The translations under genes and the position numbers were made by a program. From positions 1-24,678 of the IMG/VR virus record IMGVR_UViG_3300020042_005096: 24,678 nucleotides of DNA, one strand, 5' to 3'. This DNA is from a virus (taxonomy: Duplodnaviria > Caudoviricetes). Within the stretch, counting starts at the first letter, position 1. The number at the start of each line of letters is the position of its first letter. Below the pieces are notes generated by a model, which saw nothing but the letters and a program-made list of their open reading frames with translations, was not told the DNA's origin and searched no databases. This document shows, piece by piece, positions 18,246-24,678 of the stretch.

Positions 18246-18298
18246 TAACCTTATTGCTACCTTAGCAATGTTCAGGGTGTTTTTTTTCATAAGCAGTT

Positions 18299-18333
18299 AC
18301 CCCGTTTAGTTTCTACTTGACGGGGTTTTGTTT
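18299..18333. terminator. terminator between convergent late and early operons
   Basis: ACCCCGT...ACGGGGT stem followed by TTTGTTT; lies between convergent genes. Confidence 0.75.
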
Positions 18334-18580
18334 ATAGTTTTGAGTTTAAAAATTCATTAGTTAAATCAATTAATTTAACATTTTTGCCACCGCATATTTC
18401 AAAAGAAGATTGTTTGCTAATGCCAAATTTTATAGCATCACTAATTACTTTTTCAAGTTCTTCTTTGCTTAAAACATTAATACACTTGCACCTATTATAT
18501 TCTTTTATTGGATATTCTTTGCCGTTGGCATCAAATACAACGTTGCTAACGTTATCGTAGTATATGGTATTATTTGACAT
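18332..18580 (-). CDS. hypothetical protein (starts inside an attC-like hairpin)
   Basis: 82 aa ORF. Its 5' codons (..DNVSNV..) are encoded by the attC-like arm and the GTTAGCA box. Confidence 0.55.
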   Translation of the reverse strand: MSNNTIYYDNVSNVVFDANGKEYPIKEYNRCKCINVLSKEELEKVISDAIKFGISKQSSFEICGGKNVKLIDLTNEFLNSKL

Positions 18581-18627
18581 TGATAATTAATTGATTAATG
18601 TTGAGTGCTTATATTAGAGAGTTAGCG
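18544..18627. mobile_element. degenerate attC-like site (84 bp)
   Basis: TGCTAAC (18544-18550) ... GTTAGCG (18621-18627), with internal imperfect arms TGACATTGAT/ATTAATGTTG. Confidence 0.5.
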
Positions 18628-18633
18628 GCAACC

Positions 18634-18882
18634 CTAAAGAGACTGCAACTCACTTTCAAGATCTATTAGTTTTTGGTTGTATTCGGACAAAATCAATTTA
18701 CCGACAATACGAAAAAGGCTTTCAGGAACTTCAATACTTTCGTCAAGTCCATTGACCTTTAAATATGTTTTTCTAATAACAACACTTTCTGATTGTGTGT
18801 AATTAGCTGCTTTTATGTTAGCCTTGCAGTTTTCAATTTCTTTGGCAATTTTGTTGCCTTTTTCTAATTTTTCTAAATTCAT
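18634..18882 (-). CDS. hypothetical protein, cargo of an integron-like gene cassette
   Basis: 82 aa (MNLEKLEKGNKIAKEIE...ELQSL). Flanked by inverted ends GTTAGCGGCAACC (18621-18633) and GGCAGCCGCTAAC (18906-18918). Confidence 0.7.
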   Translation of the reverse strand: MNLEKLEKGNKIAKEIENCKANIKAANYTQSESVVIRKTYLKVNGLDESIEVPESLFRIVGKLILSEYNQKLIDLESELQSL

Positions 18883-18911
18883 TTTTATTTTGATTTGTGA
18901 AGAATGGCAGC

Positions 18912-19042
18912 CGCTAACAAGTGCTATAAAATATGGCGGCTGACGTGCTTTGATTAAACATTTGTACTAATTTAAACTTTGGTGCTTCGTATTGGGATTT
19001 CTGCTAAAAAACCGCCACATCGTATAGCACCATACGTTGGCG
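18912..19042. mobile_element. attC-like recombination site (131 bp imperfect palindrome)
   Basis: CGCTAAC-aa-GTGCTATA-aa-ATATGGCGG ... CCGCCACAT-cg-TATAGCAC-catac-GTTGGCG. AAC/GTT core boxes, an asymmetric unpaired spacer and inner arms are all visible. Confidence 0.7.
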
Positions 19043-19094
19043 GTAATACTACATTCCGTACTTCGATTTAAGCTGTTCTAATTGTTGCGTTAGG

Positions 19095-19370
19095 TTAGAA
19101 TGGTAAGTCAGTTGATAAATCAACTTCAACTGCTCTCACTTGTTGCACTTGCTTTGCAATGTATTTAACATTGCCTAATATTGCACCTTTAACACCAGCT
19201 TCTCTATCTTCTTTGCTTACGTTTTGAACTACCATACCAATATTGCCATACTGGTCAGGTTCGTCTTTCATTAAAATAGTTGCATCTAAATAAGTTCCTT
19301 TGTCACCTTTGTACAACTTTTCTTTGCTAATTTTTGTTACATCTAATTTGATGCTGATATTTGTTGCCAT
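19095..19370 (-). CDS. putative single-stranded DNA-binding protein
   Basis: 91 aa with KLDVTKI..GDKGTYLD..DQYGN..ILGNVK and an acidic C-terminal DLPF tail. In the same operon as ERF. Confidence 0.65.
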   Translation of the reverse strand: MATNISIKLDVTKISKEKLYKGDKGTYLDATILMKDEPDQYGNIGMVVQNVSKEDREAGVKGAILGNVKYIAKQVQQVRAVEVDLSTDLPF

Positions 19371-19401
19371 AATTTATGCGTAACTCCGCCGAGTTTGGTT
19401 A

Positions 19402-19503
19402 TTAAAAATCGTTTTCTGTAAAATTAAAATCGTTGAACTCATCAACTTTATCATCTATCCAATTGCATAGCAAGTAGCCTAAATTTCTAAGTATGTTTAT
19501 CAT
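19402..19503 (-). CDS. small acidic ORF (33 aa), not in ORF track
   Basis: MINILRNLGYLLCNWIDDKVDEFNDFNFTENDF*; ATGA-coupled to the upstream gene. Confidence 0.45.
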   Translation of the reverse strand: MINILRNLGYLLCNWIDDKVDEFNDFNFTENDF

Positions 19504-19733
19504 AGTAAATCGTTTATTTTTTTACAAGCTGTTGAACGTTTCAAATCTTCTATATTAGGTTCGATAACATAATACCACTTATCAACTGGAAGTTTCAAGG
19601 TTTTAAAGTTATCAATTATTTTCTTACGTTCTGAGTAATTTCTATATGCAGCAGTTCGGCACTTTTCGCCATTATACATAACTGAAATAAAACCATTGAT
19701 AGCTACTACTTTACTTCGATTCTGTATTGACAT
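19500..19733 (-). CDS. hypothetical protein
   Basis: 77 aa ORF in the tightly packed leftward operon. Confidence 0.55.
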   Translation of the reverse strand: MSIQNRSKVVAINGFISVMYNGEKCRTAAYRNYSERKKIIDNFKTLKLPVDKWYYVIEPNIEDLKRSTACKKINDLL

Positions 19734-19905
19734 TTGGCTTTAATTTTAAAATAAATTTTGCAACACAATACTCATTTATTTGATTCATAAGGTTAGGTCT
19801 ATCCCAATAAAAAAAACTTATTTTTTTAGTTGAATTAAAATTGTGTTGATAACAGATGTAATTTTTTGCATCTAAACTCTCGTTTTTAAAATGATCTACT
19901 TGCAT
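19711..19905 (-). CDS. hypothetical protein
   Basis: 64 aa ORF overlapping both neighbours in the operon. Confidence 0.5.
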   Translation of the reverse strand: MQVDHFKNESLDAKNYICYQHNFNSTKKISFFYWDRPNLMNQINEYCVAKFILKLKPNVNTESK

Positions 19906-20237
19906 TTGTAATGTTTATAATTTTGAATAATAAAATTTAACTCATCCTCATACTTTTTTGCAGTTGGGAAAATATGGCTCATTGATTTATAAATGGCTAA
20001 CATTTCTTTGCTTTCTAAATGTGCTGCAACAAATTTAGTTATTGGCATAGGTTGAAAATCTGCCATAGTTAGATTGAGTGCCTGGTTCTTAGTTAAACCT
20101 TCTAAGCAATCAGTTACTTGATTTCGCCATTGCATTACTTGTAATTCATACTGAGTATGTAAGAATGTTCTAAATTGCAACTCTTCATTTTGCTTTGCTA
20201 ATTGTGCAGTTTGTTGTGCTAATTGTACGTTATCCAT
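19896..20237 (-). CDS. hypothetical protein
   Basis: 113 aa ORF with a Q-rich helical N-terminus; short overlaps with neighbours. Confidence 0.6.
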   Translation of the reverse strand: MDNVQLAQQTAQLAKQNEELQFRTFLHTQYELQVMQWRNQVTDCLEGLTKNQALNLTMADFQPMPITKFVAAHLESKEMLAIYKSMSHIFPTAKKYEDELNFIIQNYKHYKCK

Positions 20238-20418
20238 TTTCCACCTCCTTTATTAAAAGTTTTGCAAAGAATATAGAATCGCTAACAGCAGATTCTTTTT
20301 CGGTATAAATTTCATCAAGTAGCAATATTGGCAATAATGCAGCTGCTAATTTAGTGACTTTTCTTTTGTAGAAATAGGCTTTAATTTTATTGAACATTTG
20401 GCAAAGTTTTAGTGTCAA
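20230..20418 (-). CDS. hypothetical protein (probable start ATG at 20397)
   Basis: MFNKIKAYF...EVENG; overlaps the start of the next gene. Confidence 0.5.
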   Translation of the reverse strand: MTLKLCQMFNKIKAYFYKRKVTKLAAALLPILLLDEIYTEKESAVSDSIFFAKLLIKEVENG

Positions 20419-20668
20419 TAATATTAATTATTTGGTTCGCTAATTTGAAGCAATATTTTAATTGAACATCATTACAACCACCAACCCTTGACACTTCAGC
20501 AGCTACTAATGTAGTAATAATATCCATTAGTTTAAAGTTATGTCGGCTTTCCATATCCATTTCATCATCAACAGGTTCAAATTTGCTTAAAATTGTTTCA
20601 ATTGATAGGCTTGATGTTCTTGCATTAACCGCAGCCATAGTTATTTGTTCGTGTGTGTAAAGTTTCAT
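20387..20668 (-). CDS. hypothetical protein
   Basis: 93 aa starting MKLYTHEQI, 5 nt after the ERF stop. Confidence 0.6.
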   Translation of the reverse strand: MKLYTHEQITMAAVNARTSSLSIETILSKFEPVDDEMDMESRHNFKLMDIITTLVAAEVSRVGGCNDVQLKYCFKLANQIINIIDTKTLPNVQ

Positions 20669-20673
20669 TTTGT

Positions 20674-21183
20674 TTAAATTTTAGAGTTTTTTAATAATTG
20701 TAATTGTTCTTGTTGTGATGGTGTTAATTCAAAAGCCTCGATTGCTTCAAAAGTTGTTTTGCCAGATTTCAATGCAGTAATAGCGTTCTCAAATCTAGCT
20801 GCATCAATAGGCTGTTTTTTAGGCTCAATACTATCTGCATCGGCTTCGCTTTCATCAATTAGGAATAAACCATTTAAAGCGTATTTACGGGCGTAACTTG
20901 AAGCTGTGCCAGTTGATTGTTCGCTTGACATTCCTTTATGATCAGACATTTCAGCAAAGCCATTAACACTTACTTCGCCTATTGCAGCGGTTGATTTTAA
21001 AAAAAACTTATTGCCAATAAATACTATCTCATCTGTAATAGTTAAAATAGCTTTATGCTTTAATAATATAGGCTTTACAGCTTCTAATATTTGCTCGGCA
21101 GTTCTGTATTTGTATTTGCCGAATGAGTTATATTTTCCCTTTGGTACTTTTAACTCGGTTTGAATTTTTACAAGTGCTTCCAT
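20674..21183 (-). CDS. erf: ERF-family ssDNA annealing protein (recombinase)
   Basis: KIQTELKVPKGKYNSFGKYKYRTAEQILEAVKP and QSTGTASSYARKYALNGLFLID..DAD are ERF signatures. The likely start is the ATG at 21183. Confidence 0.88.
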   Translation of the reverse strand: MEALVKIQTELKVPKGKYNSFGKYKYRTAEQILEAVKPILLKHKAILTITDEIVFIGNKFFLKSTAAIGEVSVNGFAEMSDHKGMSSEQSTGTASSYARKYALNGLFLIDESEADADSIEPKKQPIDAARFENAITALKSGKTTFEAIEAFELTPSQQEQLQLLKNSKI

Positions 21184-21771: not shown

Positions 21772-22089
21772 ATGACAAAGTATTACAAAGCGAAAGTCAA
21801 GATTGATTTTTTAGAAACAAACGAGCCACTAACTAAAGTATCTGCTAACAAGTATCAAGGCAATGACGGGTTAGAATTTAACATTGACGATAGCAATGTT
21901 GAATATTACCCTACTTGGTGCGAAATGATACAGCAAGAACGCTATCAGTTACTCGGCGAGTTAGTTGATGCAATGGTTTATTCACCAGTTGCAGTTATTG
22001 AAGTGCAACAGATAGTTAGCAGCTTTAAAGAACGTGGATTAGTTAAATCAATTATTAACCCTATAAATATTGAAAGTAATGGAATATAA
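21772..22089 (+). CDS. hypothetical protein
   Basis: 105 aa, first gene after the rightward promoter. Confidence 0.65.
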   Translation: MTKYYKAKVKIDFLETNEPLTKVSANKYQGNDGLEFNIDDSNVEYYPTWCEMIQQERYQLLGELVDAMVYSPVAVIEVQQIVSSFKERGLVKSIINPINIESNGI

Positions 22090-23095
22090 TGAGTTTTTGA
22101 AAAACAAAGTTGTTATTGCTGAAAATTTCGGCATAAATACAACTGATATTAAATTGACTAAAAAATTATTTCCACATCAAAAAGATATAGTTAACTTTTG
22201 TTTAGAAGGTGGCAGACGTGCGATTTTCGCAAGTTTCGGATTAGGCAAAACTTTTATGCAGCTTGAAATTGCTAAACAGTTAATTAGCATTTATAAAAAG
22301 CCTTTTTTAATATGCTGCCCTTTAGGTGTTAGTGGTGAGTTTAAGCGTGATAATGATAAACTTAAAACAGGTTTTAAAATTAGTTATATAACCGACACAG
22401 ATAGCATTGAAACATACGAGCCTCAGATATATCTTACAAATTATGAACGTGTAAGAATGGGCGATATTGATGCTGAAAAGTTTTGCGGTGTATCTTTTGA
22501 TGAAGCTAGTATATTACGTAATCTTCAAACAGAAACAACTCAAACTGTTTTAAAATATTTTAGAAAGGTAAACTTTAGATTTGTTGCAACTGCAACTCCA
22601 ACGCCAAATGATTTTATTGAGATTCTAAACTATGCAGATTATTTAGGTGTAATCAGTAGAGGACACGCCTTAACTCGCTTTTTTCAAAGAGATTCTACAA
22701 AAGCTGGGCAACTTAAACTTTATGAAAATAAGAAAAAAGAGTTTTGGCAATGGGTGTCAACGTGGGCAGCATTTATAAACACACCTGCGGATTTAGGATA
22801 TGATGCAACAGGCTATGATATGCCACCTATAAACATAGTAGAACATTGTATTTCTTACGATATAAAAGAGCAACCAAAAAATAAGTGGGGTGAAGCTATT
22901 TTATTTAAAGATTTAAGTAAATCGCTTTTAGAAGTTAGTAGAGAAAAAAGAGATAGCCTTTGTGCTAGAATAAACAAAGCTACTGAAATTGCTGAAACAC
23001 TAAATGGCAATGCTATTATATGGCATCATTTAGAAGCTGAAAGATGTTTGCTTGAAAGCAACTTTAAAGGTCAAAATTACACATCTGTTTATGGT
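22070..23095 (+). pseudogene. N-terminal half of an SNF2-like helicase/DNA methylase fusion, interrupted at about 23095
   Basis: Motifs LFPHQ, FASFGLGKT (I), FDEAS (II), ATATP (III) and IIWHHLEAE (IV) are present. The reading ends at SVYG, then runs into antisense sequence until the stop at 23155. Motifs V and VI are missing. Probable start is the ATG at 22079. Confidence 0.8.
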
Positions 23096-23096
23096 G

Positions 23097-23303
23097 TCAT
23101 ACTTTTGTTTTATCTACATTCTCCCCTTTATAAAAATGTTTATTTTGTCGAGTGATAACAGTTCCATTAATGGGATATAGTTTCTCCATTTCCTGCTCAG
23201 TTATACCACCGTTAATTTGCCATAAGCCCACTCCTTTTGAAATTAAGAAAGGAGTTTTGTTTCTGATTTGTTTGTGTTGGATAAAGTCTTTAATTAGTAG
23301 CAT
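23097..23303 (-). CDS. hypothetical protein
   Basis: 68 aa, starts 4 nt after the methylase stop and ends in an ATGA overlap. Confidence 0.6.
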   Translation of the reverse strand: MLLIKDFIQHKQIRNKTPFLISKGVGLWQINGGITEQEMEKLYPINGTVITRQNKHFYKGENVDKTKV

Positions 23304-23307
23304 ATTA

Positions 23308-24678
23308 TTAATTTATTAAGTCAAATAATGTAGGTACTGAAAGTTTATGCATCATAGCTTTTAAATAATAAACTCCATCATTAAAATATTCATTATTCAA
23401 CTCTATACTTACGGCTTTTCGTTGCATTTCTATTGCCTTATAAGCAGTTGAAAATAAACCGCCGAAAGGATCACAAATAACTTCGCCTTTCATAGTATAA
23501 CGATTAATTAAACGTTCAATAATATCAAATTGCAATGGGCAAATGTGCTTTTCTTTTTTAGTGTTTACTTGATTTGCATTTAAAGTTCTCATTCTATTTA
23601 CGTCTGTCCAAACCATATCATTATTACTATGCACTGGCAATGTCATAAATGTACTACTTAACTTTTCTAGTTCGTCCATATCTTCACAAATTCTAAGATG
23701 CTCTTTAAAGTTATAAATCTCATTGCTATTTAATTTTTTCCAAGCTGCAACAATCTTTTTAACTTCAACCTTTTCAAGTTCTTCTTTTGTCATAAATCTA
23801 TCTCCATTACTTCTTTGATAAGCGTGTGCATCTAATTGCCAAAGTGCTTTTTTATATTCTGTTTTTTCTTTTGTTACAGGGAAATCTCCATAAGCATTAT
23901 TCATTTCAGTAGGTGCTTTTCTAAATAGCAAAATATACTCAGGAAGTCCAACCCCCATTTTACTTGCATCTTTACATTGCTCACTCCAACCTAATCTATA
24001 TGTTTGGTTATTCTCTGCAACTACATCAGTAGTAACTGTTATTTTACCCATTAAATAAAATCCGTGCTTTAAAAAATGTTGGACAGTTTGCCCACTAAAA
24101 TCAGATATTGTAGTAAATGATGTGCCATTCTGATAACTATACCTAATTCTATCTTTAACGTGTATAGCTGCAATACGTCCGGGCTTTAATGTTCTCAATA
24201 AGTTAGGTGTTAAAAAGTCCATTTGCTCAAAAAACTTATCGTTGCCGTAATTATGTCCAAAATCATTATAATTATCTGAATACTCATAATGATCACCAAA
24301 AGGTATTGATGTCAAAATCATATCAATACTATTATCTGGCATTTCTTTTTTAGATTGGTGAACAGTTACAGTATCGTTATTATAAACTGTTACATTATCA
24401 TAAACTAATTTGCGACCTTTTTCAAAAATTTGACGTTCCATTTGTGATTTTATTAAGTTGTTATTTAATCCATTTTCTTTTACAAGTTCAATCATTTGCT
24501 TATTTAATTCAATATGTTTTGCCCACTTTTCTTTTAAAGTTTTCAGTGCTTCATATTCATTTTCTGTATAGACTATATGAACATTAACAACTTCTTTTTG
24601 CCCAAATCTGTAACATCTGTGAATTGCTTGAATAAAGTCGTTAAACTTATAATCAATACCTGCAAAAATCATATTGTT
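23308..24678 (-). CDS. C-terminal half of helicase-methylase fusion: helicase motif VI plus N4/N6 (beta-class) DNA methyltransferase; 5'-partial
   Basis: The frame is open to the window edge (NNMIFAG...). QAIHRCYRFGQ is helicase motif VI, TSIPF is an SPPF-like catalytic motif, and KHICPLQ and CDPFGGLFST mark the SAM-binding region. Confidence 0.85.
   Translation of the reverse strand, partial: NNMIFAGIDYKFNDFIQAIHRCYRFGQKEVVNVHIVYTENEYEALKTLKEKWAKHIELNKQMIELVKENGLNNNLIKSQMERQIFEKGRKLVYDNVTVYNNDTVTVHQSKKEMPDNSIDMILTSIPFGDHYEYSDNYNDFGHNYGNDKFFEQMDFLTPNLLRTLKPGRIAAIHVKDRIRYSYQNGTSFTTISDFSGQTVQHFLKHGFYLMGKITVTTDVVAENNQTYRLGWSEQCKDASKMGVGLPEYILLFRKAPTEMNNAYGDFPVTKEKTEYKKALWQLDAHAYQRSNGDRFMTKEELEKVEVKKIVAAWKKLNSNEIYNFKEHLRICEDMDELEKLSSTFMTLPVHSNNDMVWTDVNRMRTLNANQVNTKKEKHICPLQFDIIERLINRYTMKGEVICDPFGGLFSTAYKAIEMQRKAVSIELNNEYFNDGVYYLKAMMHKLSVPTLFDLIN

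Follow-up and report, generated by a model that had tools for sequence, protein, structure and literature searches.

A stretch of 24,678 nucleotides from a tailed-phage record (IMGVR_UViG_3300020042_005096, positions 1 to 24,678; hereafter the window) contains a 415-bp unit that, judged from its copies and breakpoints in related sequences, is a real and mobile gene cassette. In our reading, this unit is probably an integron-like mobile cassette of the Bacteroidota that carries its gene antisense and was inserted at an attI-like site by an IntI-related host recombinase supplied in trans, with the folded coding strand as its substrate. Comparisons trace its moves and endpoints, and we infer the enzyme, the strand used and the mode of expression. 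Sequence comparison further indicates that the entire non-coding frame of the cassette, which the original prediction had missed, is reused around dozens of unrelated genes. The parts of the locus are as follows, in positions of the window.

18604..18623, + strand: non-palindromic acceptor, read as attI-like, ending in the crossover triplet GTT (18621-18623); the - strand reads AAC-N7-T-N3-(C)G, with A here replacing the usual C
18622..19036, + strand: complete gene cassette, 415 bp from G|TT to G|TT, delimited by copies and by breakpoints in relatives
18634..18882, - strand: cargo gene, 82 aa, with 48 homologues
18916..19038, + being the top strand and - the coding and folding strand: attC-like hairpin, 123 nt from AAC to GTT, identified by covariation, folding and collinearity with chromosomal sites
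19037..19086, + strand: 48-bp remnant closed by a third GTT (19084-19086); identity to relative L001 and to sequencing run X4 resumes at 19084

Pfam and PHROG profile searches showed the 24.7-kb record to be a fragment of a tailed phage with portal, head protease, endolysin, ERF and helicase-methylase genes. The cassette locus is the meeting point of a leftward ERF operon and the rightward endolysin gene, with these neighbors:

19095..21180, - strand: ERF operon, co-directional with the cassette gene and upstream of it, with the ERF single-stranded DNA-annealing gene at 20674-21180
19095-19370, - strand: 91-aa gene with a DLPF end (phrog_24909, function unknown)
18332..18580, - strand: 82-aa ORF beginning just beyond the acceptor and overlapped at its start by the 84-bp element of the original prediction; at most a candidate cassette

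The ERF gene was assigned by PF04404 (E = 2.6e-30), and its operon is the likely source of cassette transcription. The 91-aa gene we take to be SSB-like solely through its DLPF ending. For the ORF at 18332..18580, which is retained at 96% in relatives L001 and L002 and as an N-terminal half only in L024, Pfam and PHROGs gave no family match. Motif scanning and tblastn detected no tyrosine recombinase encoded within the 24.7-kb window, an incomplete record, and none in the related 25-kb record of L001. Counts from a scan for sigma-70 promoters and terminators, made with models ill-suited to Bacteroidota, were no higher than in shuffled sequences. A small perfect hairpin after the endolysin stop codon (18253-18269), kept in L026 and with a similar one in L034, is probably a terminator between the convergent genes. 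A candidate left end at 18261-18272 (10/12 complementary, by eye), in a short hairpin after the endolysin gene, was left uncounted. Elsewhere in the window, the helicase-methyltransferase gene (phrog_16, 22070-24678) is divided between strands, its N-terminal half at 22070-23155 (+) and its C-terminal half at 23308-24672 (-). The block from 23097 onward is inverted relative to L001, from which this gene is missing, and the split reflects either a real inversion or an assembly chimera.

The sequence strings reported earlier, belonging to a 131-bp imperfect palindrome at 18912-19042 and an 84-bp stretch at 18544-18627, are all present, as are the 11/13 complementarity of the cassette ends and the stop codon adjoining the box. 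Folding energy alone gave a weak signal for the 131-bp element when both strands were folded (z = -1.36 for + and -1.66 for -). The native strands are nearly equal in energy (-18.2 for + versus -17.8 kcal/mol for -), only the - strand forms one long hairpin, and the arm score of 36 was equaled by one of 12 whole-window shuffles. The palindrome nevertheless exceeds chance, chiefly on comparative grounds. These come from a structural alignment of 38 sites, comprising 25 of the frame family (that of the window and one each from 24 further families, with four broken-hairpin families excluded), ten chromosomal sites and three from other phages. Across the alignment, 22 pairs (a 19-bp stem plus the AAC/GTT triplet) were 96% paired, against 28-52% in slid controls. 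Thirteen of the 19 stem pairs changed on both sides in a compensatory manner, and the score was equaled in 0/500 shuffles, a figure that yields no probability because the sequences are related. The AAC/GTT triplets were invariant in 38/38 sites, which had been cut at those triplets. The stem runs continuously for 19 bp, with two G.T wobbles on the - strand, an unpaired central spacer of 2 nt versus 5-6 nt and a loop of ~75 nt; extrahelical bases near the L box occurred in none of the 38 sites. Presumably, the - strand is the one that recombines.

Because the hairpin aligns collinearly with Bacteroidota chromosomal attC-like sites, the suspected kinship with these sites is upheld. Named genome matches of the hairpin pattern were nearly all from Bacteroidota, and a subfamily-specific pattern gave no matches in genomes and six in viral contigs. 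Rfam returned two weak unrelated matches for the window, the element was absent among the longest repeats listed by a repeat finder and an annotated phage collection contained nothing matching 18540-19060. The window holds one full hairpin; relatives L032 and L034 have two or more.

Evidence for movement came from natural copies and replacements. Locus L018, in an unrelated phage context, matches window positions 18617-19038 at 92% and nothing else nearby, with both ends on the AAC/GTT triplets, and L336 represents a third copy with other neighbors. In relatives L001 and L002 (94% identical), both flanks are retained around another cassette, and divergence from the window sets in at 18624 and 19084; the L001 arrangement recurs in sequencing run X4. 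In run X15, contigs show breaks at 18621 and 19035 and carry a different sequence on the left side. Both the site and the cassette are missing from this place in the more distant relatives L004-L007 (83-84%). The left GTT is shared by the window, L026, L028, L029 and L032, which carry five different units, each with complementary ends as read by eye. Sequence comparison thus locates the natural breakpoints at triplets 18621-18623 and 19036-19038; the exact cut within the triplet would follow integron biochemistry. Within families, both 30-nt flanks were <60% identical in 96 of 100 cassette pairs, with identity falling at the AAC on both sides. The L018, L001/L002 and X15 variants and these flanks bear out the proposal of a mobile integron-style cassette with breakpoints at GTT triplets, and the expected recurrence of the same repeat next to different ORFs was found in the framed families described below. 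Contig sets from four sequencing runs contained no circle joint and no exact empty site, which is not evidence of absence.

The same flanks argue against homologous or microhomologous exchange, for instance by ERF-type annealing between conserved repeats, with the hairpin as a passenger or RNA element. Although an ERF gene resides in the same operon, half-hairpins and hybrid hairpins occur and the folding strand is also the mRNA strand, sequences past the AAC agree no better than background (median 0.30) in 96/100 pairs, with matching runs of mostly 0-1 nt. Moreover, some acceptors are non-homologous 20-bp sites that bear a recombinase-type motif, and cassette ends co-vary so as to stay complementary. 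We consider this explanation very unlikely for the movement of the unit. Homology-driven exchange also occurs, as deduced from the swapped hairpin cores or half hairpins of some frame members together with loci L105 and L108, a natural empty/filled pair for a methyltransferase-like cassette in which 18 nt are shared past the AAC so that the crossover cannot be placed. In L105 and L108, the outer arm of the hairpin has 18 nt identical to those of the neighboring cassette and is less well paired, as though an exchange had fallen inside the L box.

The 48-bp remnant to the right of the cassette may be the 3' end of an earlier inverted cassette gene; it is also present in run X15, behind a different left neighbor. 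Hairpin-less remnants lie between the last cassette and the GTT beside the 91-aa gene in both the window (19037-19086) and L001 (4287-4330). Their sequences differ, and they possibly arose by recombination at a secondary GTT.

On the left side, the 84-bp stretch had been interpreted as a second, degenerate attC. It showed no hairpin beyond chance (z = -0.89 and -1.01, arm score 11), and relatives L024/L028 and L029 do not conserve its left AAC. The real site is its right end only, 18604-18623, which from its motif and absence of folding reads as a non-hairpin, attI-like acceptor. Among 79 distinct acceptors behind framed cassettes, 54 were hairpins and 25 were not, and AAC-N7-T-N3-CG occurred in 15 of these 25, versus 1.1% of 3314 background AAC sites. 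First-cassette sites next to host recombinases, picked by eye, showed the full motif in 5/7 loci; a non-hairpin site with a common motif heads the phage array and host arrays alike. The window acceptor keeps the T and G of the motif, ranks third among 1125 AAC sites when scored with a matrix from which it was excluded and agrees at 14/17 letters with the recombinase-adjacent site of L160. The missing consensus C and a rank of third rather than first in the window weaken our main reading.

With one attC, one acceptor and no attC cluster, the window is not the phage CALIN (at least two attCs, no integrase) that had been suggested. Phage attC arrays are already described (Qi 2023, PMC9892861). 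Like those phage CALINs, which include the Bacteroidota phage Polaribacter P12002L, the present locus combines attC-like sites and cassettes in a phage without integrase, implying an enzyme in trans; it differs in its single hairpin with an attI-like acceptor, its systematically antisense genes and the mobility evident from natural variants. A term search of PMC9892861 returned neither 'antisense' nor 'Bacteroid', and its supplementary CALIN table may contain related phages.

Gene orientation was resolved through co-travel of gene and hairpin, since end complementarity alone does not fix polarity. In the window cassette, gene and hairpin move together, the hairpin preceding the gene and the gene lying antisense to it; the crossover end is therefore 19036-19038 and the coding strand is the bottom strand. 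An integron gene cassette, in contrast, consists of a gene followed by its own attC in the same orientation. Running the same search pattern on viral and genome collections resolved 20 of 36 viral sites, all antisense (20/20), and 23 of 114 distinct genome sites, 20 sense and 3 antisense. An antisense arrangement, raised but left undecided in the original prediction, is thereby confirmed. Two of the three antisense genome cassettes, which may be of prophage origin, start inside the hairpin as phage genes do, and the chromosomal pair L118/L155 travels from AAC to AAC with a downstream hairpin. As the phage gene faces the acceptor, it would be read from the upstream phage operon, a mirror image of attI/Pc expression. 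Two exceptional arrangements were also seen. L028 (6023-6520) holds a sense, host-type cassette without PHROG match at the same acceptor in a related phage, which suggests that host cassettes are captured by phages, and L151 (365-1171) contains a single antisense gene inside an otherwise sense chromosomal array.

Candidate enzymes were found beside host arrays. Tyrosine recombinases were present in seven of 120 genome loci (80 with long flanks), always upstream of the first hairpin, with six co-directional with the array and one divergent; a split integrase in L185 (26-29%) was excluded from this count. No recombinase turned up in 289 loci of viral and metagenome origin, many of which are short. 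Six of the seven enzymes were scanned, and all matched TIGR02249 in two stretches below the cut-off and scored best with a XerA-like model. Aligned to the Vibrio integrase (PDB 2A3V), the L142 enzyme skips ~43 residues that include the IntI insertion. By these comparisons, the candidate enzyme is IntI-related and Xer-like, is devoid of the IntI insertion and is not a canonical IntI. The earlier idea of an IntI-like enzyme in trans is accordingly upheld in its trans part, with none in the window and enzymes at host arrays, and has to be revised as to the enzyme type.

A canonical IntI from the host or another phage, acting on ordinary attC sites of a phage CALIN, might still account for the AAC/GTT cores, complementary ends and asymmetric spacer, all of which fit attC (PMC5027507). 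IntI1 recombined a Polaribacter phage attC (PMC9892861), and for two attC sites without extrahelical bases, bottom-strand recombination was little affected (PMC5027507). This alternative is nonetheless improbable: extrahelical bases, one of three unpaired attC features (PMC5027507), are absent from all 38 aligned sites, the six array-adjacent recombinases fall below the TIGR02249 cut-off, the one aligned to 2A3V has no insertion and the 409 loci scanned by motif and tblastn, many being short, yielded no IntI-type gene that comes closer. Two points weigh on the preferred reading of an insertion-less host recombinase. The I2 helix is described as what enables IntI to recombine single strands (PMC7790495), so an enzyme without it would need another way to bind the hairpin. 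In addition, the candidate enzyme is tied to the cassette only by its neighborhood in host genomes (seven of 120 genome loci) and by motif likeness. A joint loss of the insertion and the extrahelical bases would be coherent.

In the preferred reading, the unit moves whole, with GTT/AAC breakpoints, into attC-like or attI-like acceptors, as the natural variants show, and its coding strand can fold into a 19-bp stem without extrahelical bases, as covariation shows. The enzyme would be a Xer-like, insertion-less recombinase of the kind heading host arrays beside the same acceptor motif. Most likely, a host recombinase present during infection would excise the cassette through its folded coding strand, and another phage would receive it at one of its attI-like or attC-like sites. 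Phages would then be seen to borrow the cassette machinery of their hosts, in mirror image, for exchanging accessory genes with unrelated phages. If an enzyme devoid of the I2 helix recombines hairpins, it would also put to the test the accepted explanation of how single-strand recombination by IntI arose.

Features shared with classical integrons (PMC5027507, PMC5371416) include the one-end AAC/GTT crossover, a complementary core and inverse core, a folded single-strand site with unpaired spacer and variable loop, and a putative non-hairpin entry site at the array head. The present system departs from them in the missing extrahelical bases, the 2 versus 5-6 nt spacer, the ~43 residues including the IntI insertion that the candidate enzyme lacks and the phage genes pointing toward the entry site. 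Hence, the unit works like an integron cassette, and three membership features of classical integrons are not found in it. IntegronFinder 2.0 detected few integrons in Bacteroidetes (PMC9024848), and PMC8618304 merely lists the phylum Bacteroidetes/Bacteroidota. Antisense phage cassettes, such a recombinase-array system and such a frame were not described in the literature searched by title and abstract opening, a search that covered few subscription journals.

The frame consists of the hairpin, a leader up to the ATG and a trailer from the stop codon:

18883..18915, - strand: leader, from hairpin foot to start codon, common to 97 proteins in 35 families
18621..18636, - strand: trailer, made up of the TAG stop codon and then the inverse core, whose end is AAC; pairs with 18903-18918 in the excised circle

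This frame encloses 35 unrelated protein families. Searching with the first 26-27 nt of the leader yielded 99 metagenome and 39 viral loci; with the window, the 142 matches gave 106 distinct leader-protein pairs and, after exclusion of nine shorter or cut-off proteins, 97 proteins of at least 30 aa. All-against-all phmmer comparison of the 35 families led to no merges (best E = 0.009). The trailer, which lay outside the search pattern, had at most three mismatches to that of the window in 80 of 85 complete ORFs, covering 33/35 families, and the hairpin was at least 75% identical to the window's in 27 of 34 families with enough upstream DNA. For 68 complete cassettes, identity within families was 0.90 for the frame, 0.89 for the gene and 0.30 (median) for the flanks; between families, it was 0.84 for the frame (median; maximum 0.99) and 0.50 for the gene. 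The leader was absent from 401 Bacteroidota genomes at up to one mismatch and is carried by phage and metagenome contigs.

Framed cargo proteins measure 59-137 aa, and 12/35 families match PHROGs, with a function for the HNH family only. The window cargo has 48 homologues of 60-96% identity, 43 of them 82-83 aa long, and searches of Pfam, PHROGs, Atlas and folds assigned no function. Its model (pLDDT 96) predicts a helix, beta-hairpin and helix in a prefoldin-like shape; the fold search returned nothing at E <= 0.001, and prefoldin-like entries had E values of 0.035 or worse.

Sedentary chromosomal integrons with homogeneous attC repeats, such as those with Vibrio VCRs, likewise place a near-identical site around many unrelated genes. 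The VCRs resemble the present case in combining one site with many genes and in site length (~123-126 nt). They differ in that the shared part here begins with the stop codon, takes in the hairpin and ends at the start codon, with a leader not found in the 401 Bacteroidota genomes.

Several features of the coding ends bear on how the frame came to surround so many genes. The last six coding bases contain 9% A in 32 families, against 50% in 356 control genes, and in these 32 families a frame-like composition extends 12-18 nt into the coding end. Read backwards, this end resembles the left ends of host cassettes, with GAC in 29/48 phage ends (partly non-independent) and 41/84 chromosomal ones versus 8.9% of background. 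Family-1 homologues in L003 and L034 are ordinary genes with other termini. On balance, we lean toward the view that short-homology recombination brought phage genes into a frame that already existed. A phage gene would be joined to such a frame at two points, its start codon and a position a few codons short of the stop codon, and the new cassette would take its leader and stop codon from the frame; this is the weakest step of the proposed mechanism. An RNA-based route seems improbable.

Frames could instead have been homogenized by gene conversion or selection around cassettes of independent origin. Family 16, one member of which (L239, 77% protein identity) has a diverged frame and a different hairpin, and the hairpin cores swapped in some members would fit such a history, as would a trailer constrained by pairing with the first 15 nt of the leader and a leader itself chosen by the search. 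Against it stand the frames of unrelated genes, up to 99% identical (median 0.84; within families, 0.90), in which the unpaired loop and the leader to the ATG agree as well, and the frame-like coding ends. We therefore regard homogenization as unlikely and capture into a ready frame as the better account.

Taken further, Bacteroidota phages may possess their own cassette factory, in which a standard frame of stop codon, hairpin, leader and start codon captures ordinary phage genes time and again and a host recombinase lacking the I2 helix spreads the products between unrelated phages by means of hairpins without extrahelical bases; we put this forward tentatively, at somewhat less than even confidence. 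If true, de novo formation of cassettes, a subject discussed in PMC8352920 and PMC5371416, would have left a natural record in the dozens of framed families. Because the frame is reused around 35 small genes that are unrelated to one another, and related phages hold homologues of some of them in free-standing form, the junctions can be mapped and the building step tested, which offers a handle on the open question of how integron-like cassettes are built.

Variants of the frame were also observed. In the framed cassettes of L288, L325 and L399, the 5' half of the hairpin has been lost, with nearly the same breakpoint in all three, and the end of another gene stands in its place. Loci L231-L271 display a second frame type, in which the gene starts inside the hairpin and many methyltransferase-like cargos share the same N-terminal peptide of ~16 residues.
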